Source: an uncultured Candidatus Peribacteria bacterium
GTDB lineage: Bacteria > Patescibacteriota > Gracilibacteria > UBA1369 > CAYGJQ01
Length of the DNA stretch: 28,291 bases
Direction: 5' to 3'
Assembly: GCA_964350285.1 (NCBI GenBank)
Contig: CAYGJQ010000015.1
Coordinates: 1-28,291 of the forward strand
The notes under the pieces were generated by a model, which was not told the origin of the DNA, searched no databases, and worked only from the letters and a program-made list of their open reading frames with translations. Shown here in pieces: positions 545-6,687 of this stretch. Made by a program: the position numbers and the translations under genes. Position 1 is the stretch's first letter. Every line of letters begins with the position of its first letter.

Positions 545-1057
545 ATGGGATGGTTAAGTAATTTTTTCGGTTGGGGAAAGAAGGAAACAGAGGAGGAACC
601 CAATGTCCAAGAACGGGCAAAAAGGGGACAGCAACCCACTCGTGAGGCGATAGCACAAGCAGCTGAACCGGCGCGGCCAGTATCGAGAGTAGAAGAAACT
701 CTCGATCAAATACCAATGGATCAGCTTTCTGAAGTGAGCTCAGCCGCAGTGGACCTACCTATGCTCGACGATGCAAAGTTCGCTGCCATCGACGGGATTT
801 TCGAGGCTGAGGAGATTCCCCCGGAAGACCTAGAGGCCAGAAGGGCTGCGGCTGAAGAGCATCACCGGCAACGAGTAGGCAAAGACCAGATGGTCGCCGC
901 CCTCAAAGCCAAACAAGGCGGCGCCCTCAGCACAGTGCAAAAAGCCAGGCTCAAGCTTGGCATGCCACTTACCCCCCCCAAGTTCCAATACGACCCGGAT
1001 CAAGAGATCCCCGTATTCATTCGTTCCGACAGCAAATCCTCCAAAAAGGCAAAATAA
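545..1057 (+). CDS. Orphan 170-aa protein with an N-terminal amphipathic helix and a C-terminal FtsZ-tail-like peptide
   Basis: Open ORF with SD AGGAGGT 8 nt before ATG and its own promoter. N-terminus is MGWLSNFFGW; C-terminus is DQEIPVFIRSDSKSSKKAK. Confidence 0.8.
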   Translation: MGWLSNFFGWGKKETEEEPNVQERAKRGQQPTREAIAQAAEPARPVSRVEETLDQIPMDQLSEVSSAAVDLPMLDDAKFAAIDGIFEAEEIPPEDLEARRAAAEEHHRQRVGKDQMVAALKAKQGGALSTVQKARLKLGMPLTPPKFQYDPDQEIPVFIRSDSKSSKKAK

Positions 1058-1117: not shown

Positions 1118-1900
1118 ATGAATCTCACCATCATCGGCGGCGGCAACATGGGATCCGCCATCGCTCGCAGCCTCATCAAAAATTCCGACATCAATCTCAC
1201 TATCTCGGACCCGACAGTAGATAAACTAGCTGAATTCCAAACCCAAGGCGCCACCGTCACCAGCAACAACCAAGCAGCCACCTCCAGCGCCGACGCCATC
1301 ATCATCGCCATCAAGCCACAATACATCGACAGCCTTTTCGCCGAACTAAAAGACCAAATCCCCACCAACGCCCTGATCATTTCTATCGCCGCTGGCGTCA
1401 CCATCGAACGTTTCCAAACCGGTTTCAACCATCAACAAATCGTCCGCGTAATGCCCAACACTCCAGCTCAAATCAACCAAGGCGTATCTGGTTGGTTCGC
1501 CTCAGCCGAAGTTACTGAAGCCCAAAAAGCCCAGGTGAAAACCATCCTCCAATCTTTCGGCCAAGAAGTCGAAGTCGAAAATGAATCCCTAATCGACGCT
1601 GTAACTGCTGTATCTGGTTCTGGCCCAGCATACTTCTTCTATTTCCTCGAACACATCATCAAAGGCGGAGTCGCCTGCGGTCTCACCGAGTCCCAAGCCA
1701 AAGACCTCGCCATCCAAACCGCCATCGGCGCTGCTCACCTTGCTGAACAATCCGAAGACGATCTCGCTACTCTCCGCCAAAAAGTCACCTCCAAAGGCGG
1801 CACCACTGAAGCTGCCATCAATTCCATGGTGGAAAGCAATGTCGGCGAATCAATCTCCACCGCCATCCAAAAAGCCAACCAACGCGCCAAGGAATTATAA
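1118..1900 (+). CDS. proC: Pyrroline-5-carboxylate reductase
   Basis: IIGGGNMGSAI Rossmann motif, IIIAIKPQ, ISIAAGV, VRVMPNTP, TAVSGSGPAY and VTSKGGTT. Confidence 0.98.
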   Translation: MNLTIIGGGNMGSAIARSLIKNSDINLTISDPTVDKLAEFQTQGATVTSNNQAATSSADAIIIAIKPQYIDSLFAELKDQIPTNALIISIAAGVTIERFQTGFNHQQIVRVMPNTPAQINQGVSGWFASAEVTEAQKAQVKTILQSFGQEVEVENESLIDAVTAVSGSGPAYFFYFLEHIIKGGVACGLTESQAKDLAIQTAIGAAHLAEQSEDDLATLRQKVTSKGGTTEAAINSMVESNVGESISTAIQKANQRAKEL

Positions 1901-1910
1901 AAATTTTCAT

Positions 1911-1952
1911 ACGAAAGAGCCTGGTCTCTGGGGGTTACAAACTCTTCCAGAA
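1911..1952. repeat. 3'-trailer arm of the inverted repeat flanking 1969-3159 (partner 3194-3237)
   Basis: AGCCTGGT-CTCTGGGGgttACAAACT (1918-1943, +) aligns with AGCCTGGTTCTCTGGGG-aaACAAACT (3231-3206, -). Short extensions continue on both sides. Confidence 0.85.
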
Positions 1953-1978
1953 TGTGTCCGAGGACACATCATTTCTTT
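1952..1978 (+). terminator. Possible intrinsic terminator of proC
   Basis: ATGTGTC-CGAG-GACACAT stem followed by CATTTCTTT, which is a weak U tract. Confidence 0.45.
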
Positions 1979-3159
1979 CGTCGGCCACAGATCAGACAGA
2001 AGGCCTTTCCACTACTCGAGTACTCCATGTCCTGCGGCCGCTCTTTACATTGAGCCGGCTGGTGGAACTTCTCGTAGTCCGGGATCTCCTGCTTTTCCAC
2101 GGGAGGCACGAAGGCCTCGGTCTCGATGGTGTCGGGGTGCTGCTGCGGCTTTTCGGCTTGGCAGTTGCTGCAGACACACCACGCTCCCGATTTGCAGGCG
2201 TTGCAGGTGCAGGTTGTGGGGTGGGTTTTGAGACATCCCATCACGTGGCGGATCGGCACTTCAACATCGGCGGACTGGACGGGGGGCAAGACACTCTCCA
2301 TCCTCTGGCCATCGTTACCGGAGAAGAAGGGCTGGCTTTCCGCCGAAGCGGACGGGCTGCTCTCGACGTGGGCATTGCCGCCGTGGATCGAGATATTGGG
2401 AGCGACTGTGATCTCGAAGACCTTGCCTTGGAAGCTGTCCCTGTTTGCGGAGAGTTGCTCGAGAAAGGCTCCGAGTTTTTCCAGCGCCCCGGGCGTCCAT
2501 TTGGTGCCTTGGGAGCACTCGCAGTCTTGGGCCGGTGCCGCCAACTCTTTGCCTTGGTTGAGACCGTCTTTGAATCCGGCCAGTTCACCCTCAGCGCGAG
2601 CTGCCCGAACTTCACCTTGGAGGCGAGCGGTTTTGACTTCGGCTTGGTGGCGCTTCTCCCGTTCTTCTCCCTCTCTGATTTGAGCGACTTCGGCGTTGGC
2701 CTGGAGTTCTTCCTGGCGCAGCTTCAGTCGTCGAGACTTCAGCCACTTGCGGAAGGTCAAGAACGCTGCGATCAAACCCAGGAACAATGAGGCCCACCAT
2801 TTTTTATCAGCGAGCCAGTTGTTCCAGAACGAACGCATCGGTCGGATGACCGCTGTCAACGAAGCCATGAAGGTTCGCTTCGGTTCGGTGGCGGGTTGTC
2901 GCTTGAGACGCAGTCCATCGATCTTCGATCCCCAGATTCGCCCCACCACCATCACGGTGTAGGTTTGCCGCTCGATACGGGTGATCTGGATCCGGCGAGG
3001 AGCCACGGTCAGGCGCGTCGGCGCAACGGTGTACTGGGAGGAACGGTGGTGCGTACCACACCGGAGCGGGGACTGACTATCCCCAGCCTGAGCGCTGTTC
3101 GCACCCAGGGAAAAAGAGAGTAACAACAGGGCGATTGGGAAAAGTCGTGAAAATTTCAC
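1969..3159 (-). CDS. Orphan 396-aa membrane protein: signal peptide, one TM helix, coiled coil and Cys-rich C-terminus
   Basis: GTG start with AAGGAG 7 nt upstream. Signal MKFSRLFPIALLLLSFSLGANSAQA, TM WWASLFLGLIAAFLTF, and Cys clusters CTCNAC, CVCSNC and CLIC. Confidence 0.8.
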   Translation of the reverse strand: MKFSRLFPIALLLLSFSLGANSAQAGDSQSPLRCGTHHRSSQYTVAPTRLTVAPRRIQITRIERQTYTVMVVGRIWGSKIDGLRLKRQPATEPKRTFMASLTAVIRPMRSFWNNWLADKKWWASLFLGLIAAFLTFRKWLKSRRLKLRQEELQANAEVAQIREGEEREKRHQAEVKTARLQGEVRAARAEGELAGFKDGLNQGKELAAPAQDCECSQGTKWTPGALEKLGAFLEQLSANRDSFQGKVFEITVAPNISIHGGNAHVESSPSASAESQPFFSGNDGQRMESVLPPVQSADVEVPIRHVMGCLKTHPTTCTCNACKSGAWCVCSNCQAEKPQQHPDTIETEAFVPPVEKQEIPDYEKFHQPAQCKERPQDMEYSSSGKAFCLICGRRKK

Positions 3160-3193
3160 TGTAGACTCCTTTTCAGTTCATTTCTTTGTGTGT

Positions 3194-3237
3194 TTCGGAA
3201 TATTTAGTTTGTTTCCCCAGAGAACCAGGCTGTCCGC
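3194..3237. repeat. 5'-leader arm of the inverted repeat flanking 1969-3159
   Basis: Complementary on the - strand transcript to 1911-1952, with one bulged U and an A-rich internal loop. Confidence 0.85.
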
Positions 3238-3254
3238 CCGGAACAGGCCACTGT

Positions 3255-3295
3255 GAGCCTTTTGAAGCAACAAATTTCATTGCCTCAAAAGGCTC
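3255..3295 (-). promoter_or_regulatory. 16-bp leader hairpin
   Basis: On the - strand GAGCCTTTTGAGGCAA-9 nt-TTGCTTCAAAAGGCTC is fully paired with one G.U. The same position is a mismatch on the + strand. Confidence 0.8.
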
Positions 3296-3396
3296 CAGTA
3301 AAACCATCACGTCCCAAGCGAACTACTAGTTTTCTGGAAAATTCTTGATGTAAAAGATCACCTCCGATTTCAGATTCTTCATTTCTAGAGGCGGGA

Positions 3397-3424
3397 ATTA
3401 TAAAAAATAACAAAAAAATGTCAA
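3397..3424 (-). promoter_or_regulatory. Consensus sigma70 promoter of 1969-3159, giving a ~230-nt leader
   Basis: TTGACA (3424-3419), 16-nt spacer, TATAAT (3402-3397). Confidence 0.85.
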
Positions 3425-3643
3425 GTCCAGCTTTTTACCATCTGAAACAGTTGAAAAATCGGGGCTCTCAGCTTAAAAAATTACCTCACATCACCAATTC
3501 AAAATCGTCAAACGAAACCACTCTCGAATAATCAATAAAACCCATCTTCCGGACACCAACACCAAAATCCACCTACCCAAAACCTGATTACCCAGAGTTG
3601 CACCACATTTCCAAAATCCCGGGCAGCCAGAAAAAGACTCTTC

Positions 3644-3689
3644 GCATCTTGCCGAGTATAATAGTTCGGTCAACCTGCGTTCTCTGGGA
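3644..3689. repeat. 3'-trailer arm of the inverted repeat flanking 3863-4300 (partner 4324-4367)
   Basis: ACCT-GCGTTCTCTGGGA (3673-3689, +) aligns with ACCTCGCGTTCTCTGGGA (4341-4324, -). The match extends through CTTGC...GAGT, partly via G.U-compatible substitutions. Confidence 0.85.
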
Positions 3690-3840
3690 TTTTTGAACAG
3701 ACGGACAGCCTCCATATAGGCCATCCAGGTTTGACTCTAACAACGATTCCACCCCACGGTTGCAGCCGAGAGGGTAGGAATGATTTTCCTCGGAGATGAG
3801 TTGGTATTGCAGTACTAGCTCATCTCCACTCCTTTCAGTT
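3669..3840 (+). ncRNA. Putative antisense RNA convergent on the 3' trailer of 3863-4300
   Basis: TATAAT at 3657-3662 with a weak -35. A 15-bp hairpin at 3792-3827 is fully paired only on the + strand (two G.U). There is no credible ORF. Confidence 0.35.
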
Positions 3841-3862
3841 TCAGTTAACGCCAATCACACTG

Positions 3863-4300
3863 CTATGCAGCGATTTTGACGGGCGCGTTGATCACGTGGA
3901 CATTGGCGGGGAGCCCGTAGGTCTGGCGCAGCCGCGCGACCATCTCACCTTGGGTCATGCGAGGTGCCGGAGGCACCACCGAGAGCCGGGGGCGACGGGG
4001 GTGGGGGGCCAATGCAGGGGAGGTGGGGAACGGCGATTGCTCCACTACCTCCAGTGGCCACAACGGGGGCAGTGGGGAGTTTTCCAACTGGTGCACCACA
4101 CAGCCAAGGCCCTTGACGGGCACATTGAGTTGCGCCGATGCCTTCAGGCGACAGTGAAATCCTTTGACGCTGACTCCTTTGATGCGGCCCTTACAGACCT
4201 GTTGTGCCATCCATACCAACCCCTTCGCCTCACTTTCAGACAGATTTTGCTTCTTCTGGAGCACCACGATTGCGCTCATCATCTTGATCAAATTCTTCAT
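3863..4300 (-). CDS. Orphan 145-aa basic protein with a Pro-rich segment
   Basis: ATG with GAGGT 7 nt upstream, its own promoter and a ~200-nt structured leader. No recognisable domain. Confidence 0.7.
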   Translation of the reverse strand: MKNLIKMMSAIVVLQKKQNLSESEAKGLVWMAQQVCKGRIKGVSVKGFHCRLKASAQLNVPVKGLGCVVHQLENSPLPPLWPLEVVEQSPFPTSPALAPHPRRPRLSVVPPAPRMTQGEMVARLRQTYGLPANVHVINAPVKIAA

Positions 4301-4323
4301 TTCAGTAACCTCATAACGTTTTT

Positions 4324-4367
4324 TCCCAGAGAACGCGAGGTGTCCTAGTCACTCAGCAGCAAGCCGC
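4324..4367. repeat. 5'-leader arm of the inverted repeat flanking 3863-4300
   Basis: Complementary on the - strand transcript to 3644-3689. Confidence 0.85.
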
Positions 4368-4371
4368 TTAA

Positions 4372-4413
4372 TGACTCCAGATCTATTAGCCACAGCTAAT
4401 CTCTCCAGAGTCA
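4372..4413 (-). promoter_or_regulatory. Leader hairpin
   Basis: On the - strand TGACTCTGGA/TCTGGAGTCA forms 10 bp with two G.U, capped by ATTAGC-TGTG-GCTAAT. Confidence 0.75.
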
Positions 4414-4499
4414 CCAAGGGCTCACCGACCACAAGCAACCAGGACCCTCACTTTCTCGTAATTTCTGTAAATCAAAGAACATTTTTGCTAGCGCGCCAC

Positions 4500-4527
4500 A
4501 GAATACACAAAAAGTCAAATTTGTCAA
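4500..4527 (-). promoter_or_regulatory. sigma70 promoter of 3863-4300
   Basis: TTGACA (4527-4522), 16-nt spacer, TATTCT (4505-4500). Confidence 0.7.
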
Positions 4528-4719
4528 CCCTTCGCATCCTGTTTCACCGCTTTTCAATTGCCGATCCAACAAAAATCTGGCCAAACAAAATTCTATATTT
4601 CCTGACAAAAGCCTGTCATTTAGCCGCAAAAACACCACAATAGTTGGCATTATCAAAATCTGATTTCTCCGGGGAGTGTCATCAGATTTTCTTTTTCCTC
4701 TGTTTTTGCTTAATAGAAA

Positions 4720-6687
4720 TTAACCTCTCCTCCCAAACATTTTTTCCAGGTCGCCAAAGGTCAAAGGCAGCATTGTTGGCCGACCATGTGGGCAGGTCAC
4801 AATTCCTTCAGTCTTATCCATTTCTTTGATCAGCCCCACCATTTCTTCATGGGTTAACGGATCCCCAAATTTAATCGCCGTCCGACAGGCCATATATTCT
4901 AATATCTTTATCTTCCTTTCTTCCGCAGTTTTCGGTTTTCGTTCATTCGTAAGATCATCCAGAATCCCCATGATCAGTTTCTCCACATTCACCTTGCGCG
5001 CATCTGCTGGAATCGCCCCCAAAGCAAAGGTATTGCCTCCAAACGCTTCAATCTCAAACCCTAACTTCTGAAACACCTCAATATTCTCCTCCAATACCGA
5101 AATTTCCTGATGCGATAATTCAATATTTAACGGCATCAACATCGGCTGCGAAGCCAAGGGCCTTTTCTCCCAGGCCTCCTCGAATTTCGCAAACAACACT
5201 CGTTCATGTGCCGCATGCTGATCAATCAACACCAGTCCATCGGCATTCTGCGCCACAATATACGAATTCGCCACCTGCACAATCGGCTTCATACTTAAAT
5301 TATCCTCAAGGCGGGCATGTGGACGTCCAATGCTTTGATCTGCTTGAATATTTTGACTAACATCAATTGTCGACGGATTCGGGGCAACAGCATTGCTTGC
5401 GGGTGAAGGGGGCTGCCTTTCGACTTGTCCCTCGAAGCCTTGGTGAAGTGGTGTCGACGAAATCTGGGCGACAGCATTAGTCTTCTCGCCACTAGGATGG
5501 AATGTCGACCGATTCCGGTCAACAGCACCTCCATTCGCCTCACCGATTACCCCAGTCACCGGATCAACATCTCCCATCAATGATCTTTTCGTCGGGCCAA
5601 AGTCATGAGTACTTAAAGTCATCGCTTCTTGCTCCCCCGTTACTCCCTGCGGCAAAATTTCATCTTCACTCATTCCCTTCGCAATCTGCGGTCGCAGCAA
5701 ATTCGTATCCAGCGCCGCTAAGCAAGCCCGTCTCACCACTCGATTTACTTCCCTTTGATCCACAAATCTCACCTCAGTTTTCCGCGGATGCACATTCACA
5801 TCCACCAGTTCCGGTGAAATTTCCAAACAAATCACAAAAAATGGCTGCTTCCCATCCATCAACAAAGATCCAAAAGCATCTTTCACCATATAAGACATCG
5901 CCGAATTCTGCACCGGCCGTCCATTTACAAATAAATACTGTCCTTTTCTACTTTTTCGGGAAATCCGCGGATGTCCCACAAAGCCTTCAAGTTGAATATC
6001 TGCCCCGCCAAAAAACACCGGAATCAAAGCCTCTCCCACCGATCTCCCCAACAAAGCCTGAATCCGCTCCGATAATTCTGCAGTCGCTGGCACATCAAAG
6101 ATCTGTCGACCATCTTTGATCAACGAAAAGCTCACCCCCGGATTCACCAATGCCAATTGTGTCACAATCGCTAAAATTTGCTGATATTCCGTTGCCGTCG
6201 TTTTTAGATATTTCTTCCGCGCCGGCGTATTAAAGAATAAGTTTTTCACTTCCACCTGCGTCCCTTCTGGACAGCCCACCACCTCAAATTTCTTGATCTC
6301 ACCGCCATCACACACCAATTCATATCCTTCCACTTCTCCCCGTCTTTTCGTCTTCAAGCAAAACTGTGAAACCGAAGCAATACTTGCTAACGCTTCCCCA
6401 CGAAACCCCCGCGTCCGAATTCGATGTAAATCTTCTTCTACTTCAATTTTACTCGTCGCATGTCTTTCTAAAGCCAATTCTGCATCTTCTTTATCCATTC
6501 CATTTCCATCATCAGTCACCCGAATCAACTCCGTTCCCCCGACTGCAATTTCTAATACAATTCTTTTCGCGTCAGCATCCAGCGAATTTTCTAAAAGCTC
6601 TTTTGCAACCGAAGCTGGTCTTTCCACCACTTCACCGGCGGCAATTTGATTCCGTAGCTGTTCCGAAAGAATCCGAATATCTCCCAT
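4720..6687 (-). CDS. mutL: DNA mismatch repair endonuclease MutL
   Basis: NQIAAGEVVERPASVAKELLENSLDA, ATSKI, GFRGEALASI, DVNVHPRKTEVRF, DQHAAHER, ACRTAIK and CPHGRP. Confidence 0.99.
   Translation of the reverse strand: MGDIRILSEQLRNQIAAGEVVERPASVAKELLENSLDADAKRIVLEIAVGGTELIRVTDDGNGMDKEDAELALERHATSKIEVEEDLHRIRTRGFRGEALASIASVSQFCLKTKRRGEVEGYELVCDGGEIKKFEVVGCPEGTQVEVKNLFFNTPARKKYLKTTATEYQQILAIVTQLALVNPGVSFSLIKDGRQIFDVPATAELSERIQALLGRSVGEALIPVFFGGADIQLEGFVGHPRISRKSRKGQYLFVNGRPVQNSAMSYMVKDAFGSLLMDGKQPFFVICLEISPELVDVNVHPRKTEVRFVDQREVNRVVRRACLAALDTNLLRPQIAKGMSEDEILPQGVTGEQEAMTLSTHDFGPTKRSLMGDVDPVTGVIGEANGGAVDRNRSTFHPSGEKTNAVAQISSTPLHQGFEGQVERQPPSPASNAVAPNPSTIDVSQNIQADQSIGRPHARLEDNLSMKPIVQVANSYIVAQNADGLVLIDQHAAHERVLFAKFEEAWEKRPLASQPMLMPLNIELSHQEISVLEENIEVFQKLGFEIEAFGGNTFALGAIPADARKVNVEKLIMGILDDLTNERKPKTAEERKIKILEYMACRTAIKFGDPLTHEEMVGLIKEMDKTEGIVTCPHGRPTMLPLTFGDLEKMFGRRG

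Follow-up and report, generated by a model that had tools for sequence, protein, structure and literature searches.

To our knowledge, pairing in cis between the two ends of a bacterial mRNA has been documented for only a handful of genes. In the Bacillus subtilis hbs mRNA, a 14-bp interaction joining the 5' untranslated region (UTR) to the 3' UTR sits beside a structured leader and a strong Shine-Dalgarno (SD) sequence and modulates ribonuclease access (PMC5737220), and in Staphylococcus aureus icaR a 3' UTR motif pairs with the SD, blocking initiation and creating an RNase III site (PMC3868564). The aapA1/IsoA1 and hok/Sok toxin mRNAs use long-distance interaction or fold-back together with metastable hairpins that form co-transcriptionally (PMC6733600, PMC5416894). 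Here, we describe a candidate for such pairing at orf396, an orphan gene on contig CAYGJQ010000015.1 of an uncultured Candidatus Peribacteria bacterium (assembly GCA_964350285.1), in which two complementary arms flank the coding sequence (CDS). The window that we analyzed is the entire contig (28,291 nucleotides [nt]). We tentatively favor, with somewhat less than even confidence, a model in which a cis-acting 5'/3'-UTR duplex closes the finished orf396 mRNA and would control its stability or processing.

The closest precedent is hbs, which shares with orf396 a structured 5' UTR, a strong SD, and short 5'/3'-UTR complementarity located away from the SD. The orf396 duplex, known from computation alone, differs from that of hbs in being longer (~28 bp in four blocks), in abutting a 56-bp hairpin, and in having a predicted local competitor; moreover, the orf396 product is an orphan membrane protein, whereas that of hbs is an abundant nucleoid protein. 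In contrast to icaR, the paired 5' segment of orf396 lies 47 to 72 nt upstream of the start codon, and a local hairpin of its own encloses the SD in either predicted state. Cis pairing between 5' and 3' UTRs, as in hbs and icaR, is nonetheless found in the predicted full orf396 transcript. The in silico behavior also resembles that of hok and aapA1, with weaker local structure during transcription followed by a stronger 5'-3' interaction. However, those mRNAs code for toxic peptides of 30 to 50 amino acids and have an antisense RNA antitoxin, whereas orf396 codes for 396 amino acids and no antisense partner was seen; the sole plus-strand promoter-like site between positions 1000 and 5000 is weak (3505 to 3532; 9/12). 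Membership in a type I toxin family was considered and rejected, with a 396-amino-acid product set against the small peptides (<~60 amino acids) of those families.

Three predicted features are new in this analysis: the 56-bp strand-specific leader hairpin, the arm switch, and the same layout at the neighboring gene orf145. If the pairing operates, it would bring together a large orphan gene, an exceptionally long strand-specific leader hairpin, and a clean predicted switch from local to long-range pairing, and would offer a compact model of transcript-completion sensing. Its recurrence at orf145, and possibly at other unannotated genes, would suggest that rapidly evolving genes of this poorly known lineage draw on an expression module that can be reused.

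Arms, leader hairpin, and predicted switch

The initial annotation proposed an interrupted leader/trailer duplex with extensions on both sides, and its core is borne out: the two arms are complementary and bracket the open reading frame (ORF). By repeat search, alignment, and folding, the 5' arm (3206 to 3231, minus strand) lies directly 3' of the leader hairpin, and the 3' arm (1918 to 1943, minus strand) falls 26 to 51 nt past the stop codon, within the 68 nt that separate the convergent genes proC and orf396. The arms are 26 nt long and 73% complementary without gaps; with gaps allowed, they form 8+8+7 Watson-Crick pairs interrupted by a single bulged U and a 2x3 internal loop. The proposed inner extension is present in the minimum free energy (MFE) fold of the whole mRNA, where UUCCG pairs with CGGAA around a bulge to give five further pairs, joining UUCCGAA (3194 to 3200, minus strand) to UUCUGGAA in the trailer (1945 to 1952, minus strand). 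The proposed outward extension, GCGGA with UUCGU, is not part of that fold, as the leader hairpin takes up GCGGAC in its base. The bases immediately outside the arms are not repeated, and the arms, leaders, and trailers have no other copy in the genome. Among dinucleotide shuffles of the two flanks, 0 of 5000 reach an alignment score of 30 (mean 15.7, maximum 28), the duplex energy (z score -3.6) is matched by 2 of 1000 shuffles, and the leader/trailer complementarity of orf396 ranks fourth to sixth among the 1469 genes of the genome.

In the full transcript, MFE and centroid structures alike place the 5' arm against the trailer, in a predicted duplex of 28 bp in four blocks (8+8+7+5) with an energy of -41.5 kcal/mol. 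Partition functions for the full-length model give a probability per arm nucleotide of 0.86 for pairing with the trailer and 0.00 for local pairing, and local pairing takes values of 0.53 to 0.54 in transcripts ending at the stop codon, at 2800, or at 3100. The local alternative partner in the leader-only fold is a segment that we refer to as leader-up (3326 to 3341, minus strand; 15 bp with the 5' arm, three of them G.U). The leader-up/5'-arm duplex has an energy of -17.7 kcal/mol, and the probability that leader-up is unpaired is 0.13 without the trailer versus 0.50 with it. A terminator scan shows no terminator-like site on the minus strand between the stop codon and the 3' arm. The palindromic hairpin that overlaps the stop codon (1952 to 1969) is called as a terminator on the plus strand, where it has the T-rich tail CATTTCTTTC, but not on the minus strand, and it probably terminates proC.

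In the proposed mechanism, the consensus promoter would give rise to an orf396 mRNA with a ~230-nt leader holding the 56-bp G.U-rich hairpin, and in the nascent RNA the 5' arm would pair weakly with leader-up, at the end of a putative upstream ORF (uORF). Once the 3' UTR has been made, the 5' arm would pair far more strongly with the trailer, so that the mRNA closes as a panhandle that stacks on the leader hairpin. Such a panhandle could hide or expose a 5'-proximal single-stranded segment and both mRNA ends, and so set stability or processing, and it is plausible that RNase III acts on the duplexes. The genome codes for one RNase III (rnc), and cleavage instead of protection is therefore a live variant of the model. 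A translational switch operated by the panhandle was also considered and is not supported, with SD and GUG accessibility being the same with and without the trailer. Because the SD and the GUG start are closed in both states, the predicted switch would bear on stability or processing and not directly on initiation. The cis-pairing model is coherent at the RNA level and is computational throughout; we infer that both arms are co-transcribed, that the duplex forms in the cell, and that it affects stability.

The leader itself carries the clearest RNA-level signal. As the initial annotation had stated, the promoter lies outside the arms and matches the consensus exactly, with all 12 positions of a sigma-70-type TTGACA-16 nt-TATAAT at 3424 to 3397 on the minus strand; the 1.87-Mb genome has only 12 perfect TTGACA-N16-18-TATAAT sites, this one included, and all 12 are intergenic. 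A putative uORF of 18 codons (MKNL...; 3326 to 3382, minus strand), taken from the ORF listing of the leader, begins ~9 nt from the expected transcript start and ends inside leader-up, although a uORF of this length could arise by chance. The core of the long leader hairpin (3233 to 3322, minus strand) is 90 nt and folds at -52.7 kcal/mol on the minus strand versus -31.0 on the plus strand, and it contains a continuous stretch of 24 bp of double-stranded RNA (dsRNA). With its base helices, the hairpin spans 3207 to 3341 and has 56 bp, of which 13 are G.U. The 236-nt leader as a whole folds at -85 kcal/mol (z score -6.1; 0 of 200 shuffles), compared with a z score of -2.5 for its complement. 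G.U pairs would be A-C mismatches on the opposite strand, and because the leader region is structured on the mRNA strand only, it is under constraint at the RNA level. In a genome-wide fold scan, the hairpin has the fifth-lowest energy among 15,236 noncoding window-strands and the largest strand asymmetry among the top matches. The SD (AAGGAG, 3171 to 3166) and the GUG start (3159 to 3157) are predicted to be held against codons 2 to 7 in a small, separate 12-bp hairpin (3140 to 3170, minus strand) in MFE folds with and without the trailer, with probabilities of being unpaired of 0.27 to 0.29 for the SD and 0.02 to 0.03 for the GUG in either case. Rfam gave no match at the gathering threshold over the window and none at an E value of ≤1 over 1850 to 4600, and no tRNA was found.

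Comparison with related strains is consistent with such constraint. Runs X1 and X2 contain the locus exactly and probably represent a single data set that was filed twice. Run X4 provides short Logan contigs, possibly from two strains mixed, and among these the pgeF and proC pieces differ by 1 to 2% and the orphan CDS pieces by 12 to 13%. The leader pieces of three orphans (418 to 583, 2996 to 3394, and 4319 to 4490) have no substitution, and the orf396 promoter stretch (3396 to 3425) is unchanged, as are the next 399 nt downstream. The adjoining upstream spacer (3395 to 3561, the promoter itself excepted) has 37 substitutions and five one-base indels over 167 nt. Within the orf396 CDS, the indels are of 3 and 6 nt, and those upstream of the promoter are of 1 nt. 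The pattern, which is suggestive only, agrees with a promoter and leader that are constrained and a protein that diverges rapidly.

Recurrence at orf145 and elsewhere

The neighboring orf145 (3863 to 4300, minus strand) has a layout like that of orf396, with a promoter matching 10 of 12 positions (4527 to 4500), a possible uORF of 23 codons, and a long G.U-rich leader hairpin (leader z score -7.4). Its 5' arm (4315 to 4345, minus strand) shares the core GTTCTCTGGG and comes directly after the hairpin, and its 3' arm (3670 to 3695, minus strand) reads UCCCAGAGAACGC on the mRNA strand. Pairing of the arm with the trailer has a probability of 0.71 and is present in the MFE and centroid structures, with the trailer segment lying 174 to 190 nt past the stop codon. 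Three of the six genomic copies of the 10-mer GTTCTCTGGG are within the orf396 and orf145 arms, and the four arm sites alternate in orientation and have CTG(C)G(T)TCTCTGGG in common. The terminator scan shows no clear terminator between orf145 and the orf396 promoter.

Several shorter sequences link these leaders. The genome has just two copies of GAAATGAAGAAT, one where the orf396-leader uORF starts (3371 to 3385) and one at the orf145 start codon (4289 to 4303), with 16 of 17 positions identical, which hints at common ancestry of the two modules. The orf396 and orf145 leaders show a modest resemblance, aligning with a score of 27 that is reached by 15 of 1000 shuffles. The two proteins are unrelated, and the trailers are not similar past an 8-mer. 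TGGTTCTCTG likewise occurs only twice in the 1.87-Mb genome, in the orf396 leader (3218 to 3227) and in the leader of a further orphan, orf176 (28108 to 28117), on the mRNA strand in both, and four of the 24 genomic copies of GTTCTCTG are in UTRs of three orphans on the window contig. Together with the shared arm core, these links suggest either that local duplication relates the expression modules to one another or that the modules have a recognized motif in common.

Genome-wide, leader/trailer repeats are overrepresented among genes that have hairpin leaders (9/91 versus 14/751; Fisher P, 3e-4). Perfect or near-perfect arms of 13 to 17 nt, each specific to its gene, are present at C40:1209-1694(+), C27:3506-3847(-), C132:648-968(+), C33:18687-19139(+), C3:11957-12925(+), and C4:11162-13321(-). 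Full-length models of the genes other than that on C4, which is too long to fold, give arm-pairing probabilities of 0.88 to 0.98. No Pfam family was found for the five of these genes that were scanned. Since each gene has arm sequences of its own, a shared DNA recombination site is unlikely and a cis-acting RNA role is favored. The C4 gene contains SBBP and MopE motifs. The highest-scoring inverted repeat around any gene of the genome (score 42) flanks one that codes for a protein of the 23S-rRNA-intervening-sequence/bAvd family at C42:1467-1862(-); it was considered as an intervening-sequence control and set aside, as there is no rRNA match around it and the gene is free-standing.

It is conceivable, although rather doubtful, that orf396, orf145, orf176, and several genes on other contigs use a common post-transcriptional module for fast-evolving orphans, with leaders that are near-invariant between strains. 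The proposed module would comprise a strong promoter, a short uORF, a leader hairpin of ~55 bp rich in G.U pairs, and a switch segment pairing first locally, during transcription, and then with the 3' UTR of the finished mRNA. If so, it would sense transcript completion, after which the mRNA would be closed or processed, and a hok-like fold-back logic would extend, as a class found across the genome, to secreted or membrane proteins of ordinary size.

Alternative explanations for the arms

Several considerations count against a pairing function for the orf396 arms. Re-pairing leaders with trailers is a stricter chance control than shuffling, and leaders given random trailers reach a score of at least 30 in a mean of 2.0 of 1430 genes (~0.14%) versus 6 real ones, and a score of at least 27 in 7.4 versus 15 real ones, such that the genome-wide excess is real but modest. 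The core of the long-range helix is purely Watson-Crick and hence carries no strand signature, unlike the leader hairpin, and the duplex is equally stable as plus-strand RNA (-57.3 versus -52.3). None of the X4 pieces covers the 3' arm, and MFE models of 1.5-kb mRNAs leave out ribosomes and folding kinetics. The arm repeat is a ~0.1 to 0.4% event per gene, which is unusual but not overwhelming alone, and chance is an unlikely explanation; the arms are a genuine, fairly unusual sequence feature on a genuine orphan gene. The repeat could still be a functionless by-product, either a chance match or a relic of the local duplication and rearrangement by which the two tandem modules were assembled from common pieces, with only the leader hairpins being functional. 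The re-pairing rate, for a feature chosen after reading the window, lends weight to this, as do the Watson-Crick core of the helix and the signs of local paralogy (the similarity of the two leaders and the presence of GAAATGAAGAAT at both the first uORF and the orf145 start). We nonetheless regard it as unlikely, if well worth keeping in view: two adjacent genes both have arms in their UTRs, beside the leader hairpin and shortly past the stop codon, the arms are the best-matching parts of otherwise unrelated UTRs, and hairpin leaders are associated with leader/trailer repeats genome-wide.

The duplex might instead be a destabilizing or maturation site, in which the long-range helix and the 56-bp hairpin are RNase III substrates resembling those of icaR or of rRNA stalks, with cleavage that would trim or inactivate the mRNA. 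There is continuous dsRNA (24 bp within the core of the hairpin and 8+8+7 bp along the stalk), the enzyme is encoded, 5'/3' pairing in icaR makes an RNase III site (PMC3868564), and a read-through transcript from orf145, which has no clear terminator before the orf396 promoter, could fold as nested stalks. The stalk helices are, however, short and interrupted, and the pairing leaves the SD uncovered, unlike that in icaR, so that we consider this reading improbable. Convergent transcription offers another role for the 3' arm: proC ends at 1900 and the terminator-like hairpin on its strand is at 1952 to 1969, so the arm at 1918 to 1943 would be transcribed on both strands, the proC and orf396 mRNAs would overlap antisense, and the proC 3' UTR, with a sense copy of the 5' arm, could act in trans. 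We think this very unlikely, as it does not account for orf145, which has the same layout although no convergent gene shares its trailer.

The initial annotation further raised inversion of the DNA between the arms, and this is not supported. Short inverted repeats do bracket a gene or promoter as in invertons and shufflons: either the ORF would invert or the pair 3206 to 3231/3670 to 3695 would invert ~440 bp around the consensus promoter. Spacing of ~440 bp around a promoter is typical of invertons, and the four sites with CTG(C)G(T)TCTCTGGG alternate in orientation. In contrast to invertons, family searches of the window genes show no recombinase encoded within the 28 kb (the serine and tyrosine recombinase matches of the genome are all on other contigs), the adjoining leader hairpins carry RNA-strand-specific G.U pairs, and the other leader/trailer repeats in the genome have unrelated sequences. 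Neither joints nor a second orientation were seen in the contigs of X1 and X2, or of X1 to X4 as a whole, which is a weak test at ~4x depth with contigs that drop rare variants. We therefore hold inversion to be highly improbable. A miniature inverted-repeat transposable element, an enterobacterial repetitive intergenic consensus, or an insertion sequence was rejected given that the arms, leaders, and trailers are unique in the genome and there is no transposase domain, and an integron cassette was rejected given that a single-site palindrome of the attC type is missing, the orientation of the sites alternates, and an integrase is not encoded nearby.

The orf396 protein and its genomic setting

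The orf396 CDS (1969 to 3159, minus strand; 396 amino acids) is supported by its codon composition and by the 3- and 6-nt lengths of its indels in run X4. Its G+C content by codon position (0.59/0.48/0.70) is a coding-frame pattern, and the third-position value (GC3) is high against a genome median of 0.445, with a GC3 of at least 0.65 reached by only 14 of 1579 ORFs. Its description as an orphan is confirmed: only the protein itself is returned when 5.8 billion proteins are searched by word index and when 1.84 billion representatives are searched exhaustively with HMMER, and there is no match in Pfam, NCBIfam, PHROGs, PADLOC, or the PDB sequences, nor in a scan of IMG/VR; the best ESM Atlas score (0.60) is uninformative. 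The protein features described at the outset are all present, namely, a signal-like N-terminal segment ending in AQA, a basic stretch (residues 26 to 118; isoelectric point 11.7), a single hydrophobic stretch (121 to 136) that runs on as one long helix (119 to 206), glycine at every fourth residue in GELAGFKDGLNQG, and a Cys-rich C-terminal part, with 13 cysteines in all, including CEC, CTCNAC, CVCSNC, and CLIC. Structure prediction and homology searches yielded a confident helix at 119 to 206 and no family, fold, or homolog. The single-sequence AlphaFold model has a mean predicted local distance difference test (pLDDT) score of 52.7, is confident only for that helix, and stays below 50 throughout the Cys-rich part. 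The protein has no match to a known metal-binding domain or fold in Pfam, NCBIfam, or PDB, and the metal-binding effector of the initial annotation is a conjecture, with metal binding drawn solely from CxC/CxxC spacing. We conclude that orf396 is a genuine orphan gene that is diverging rapidly and codes for a predicted membrane-anchored, Cys-rich protein, which would be bitopic and lineage restricted.

Other ORFs with high GC3 (0.68 to 0.72) are C69:6821-8554(-), C32:19274-19909(-), and C19:23622-25067(-), two of which are without a Pfam or NCBIfam family and one of which has MopE-type Cys-rich motifs; the three may be part of a compositionally distinct gene set. The genome is SD poor, with 89% of longest-ORF starts lacking an SD of at least 4 nt, and the AAGGAG of orf396 is among the top 27. 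Genes with an SD of 6 to 7 nt have a mean GC3 of 0.515 versus 0.45.

The genome (1.87 Mb, 153 contigs, 44% G+C) is the sole member of its family among the genomes compared and belongs to an order of small genomes (0.7 to 1.6 Mb). The gene order is proC (1118 to 1900, plus strand), orf396, orf145, and mutL (4720 to 6687, minus strand), and the remaining genes of the contig have ordinary housekeeping and envelope functions. Genomes of the same order (n = 40) have only mutL and proC in common with the window, at 64 to 88% DNA identity, and the proC-mutL adjacency is absent from them, so synteny is uninformative. The orf145 protein, like that of orf396, gave only a self-match in the homology search. 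A ProC scan of GTDB contigs and an exact-protein look-up of contigs gave no match, and exact 24-nt and 30-nt leader patterns were not found in JGI metagenome contigs.

Two further ORFs of the window, orf170 (545 to 1057, plus strand) and orf176 (27367 to 27897, minus strand), have raised G+C and no Pfam, PHROG, or PADLOC match; the sole NCBIfam match of the two, that of orf170, is subthreshold (14.8 bits against a cutoff of 425). The orf176 product has a signal-peptide-like N terminus, and its leader hairpin (27931 to 28050) folds at -52.6 kcal/mol on the minus strand versus -31.7 on the plus strand. The window also contains a dispersed repeat as an inverted pair (12804 to 12899/20611 to 20705), with 75 nt at 88% complementarity and an adjacent 23 nt at 91%, the copies of which are 7.7 kb apart and lie between convergent genes.

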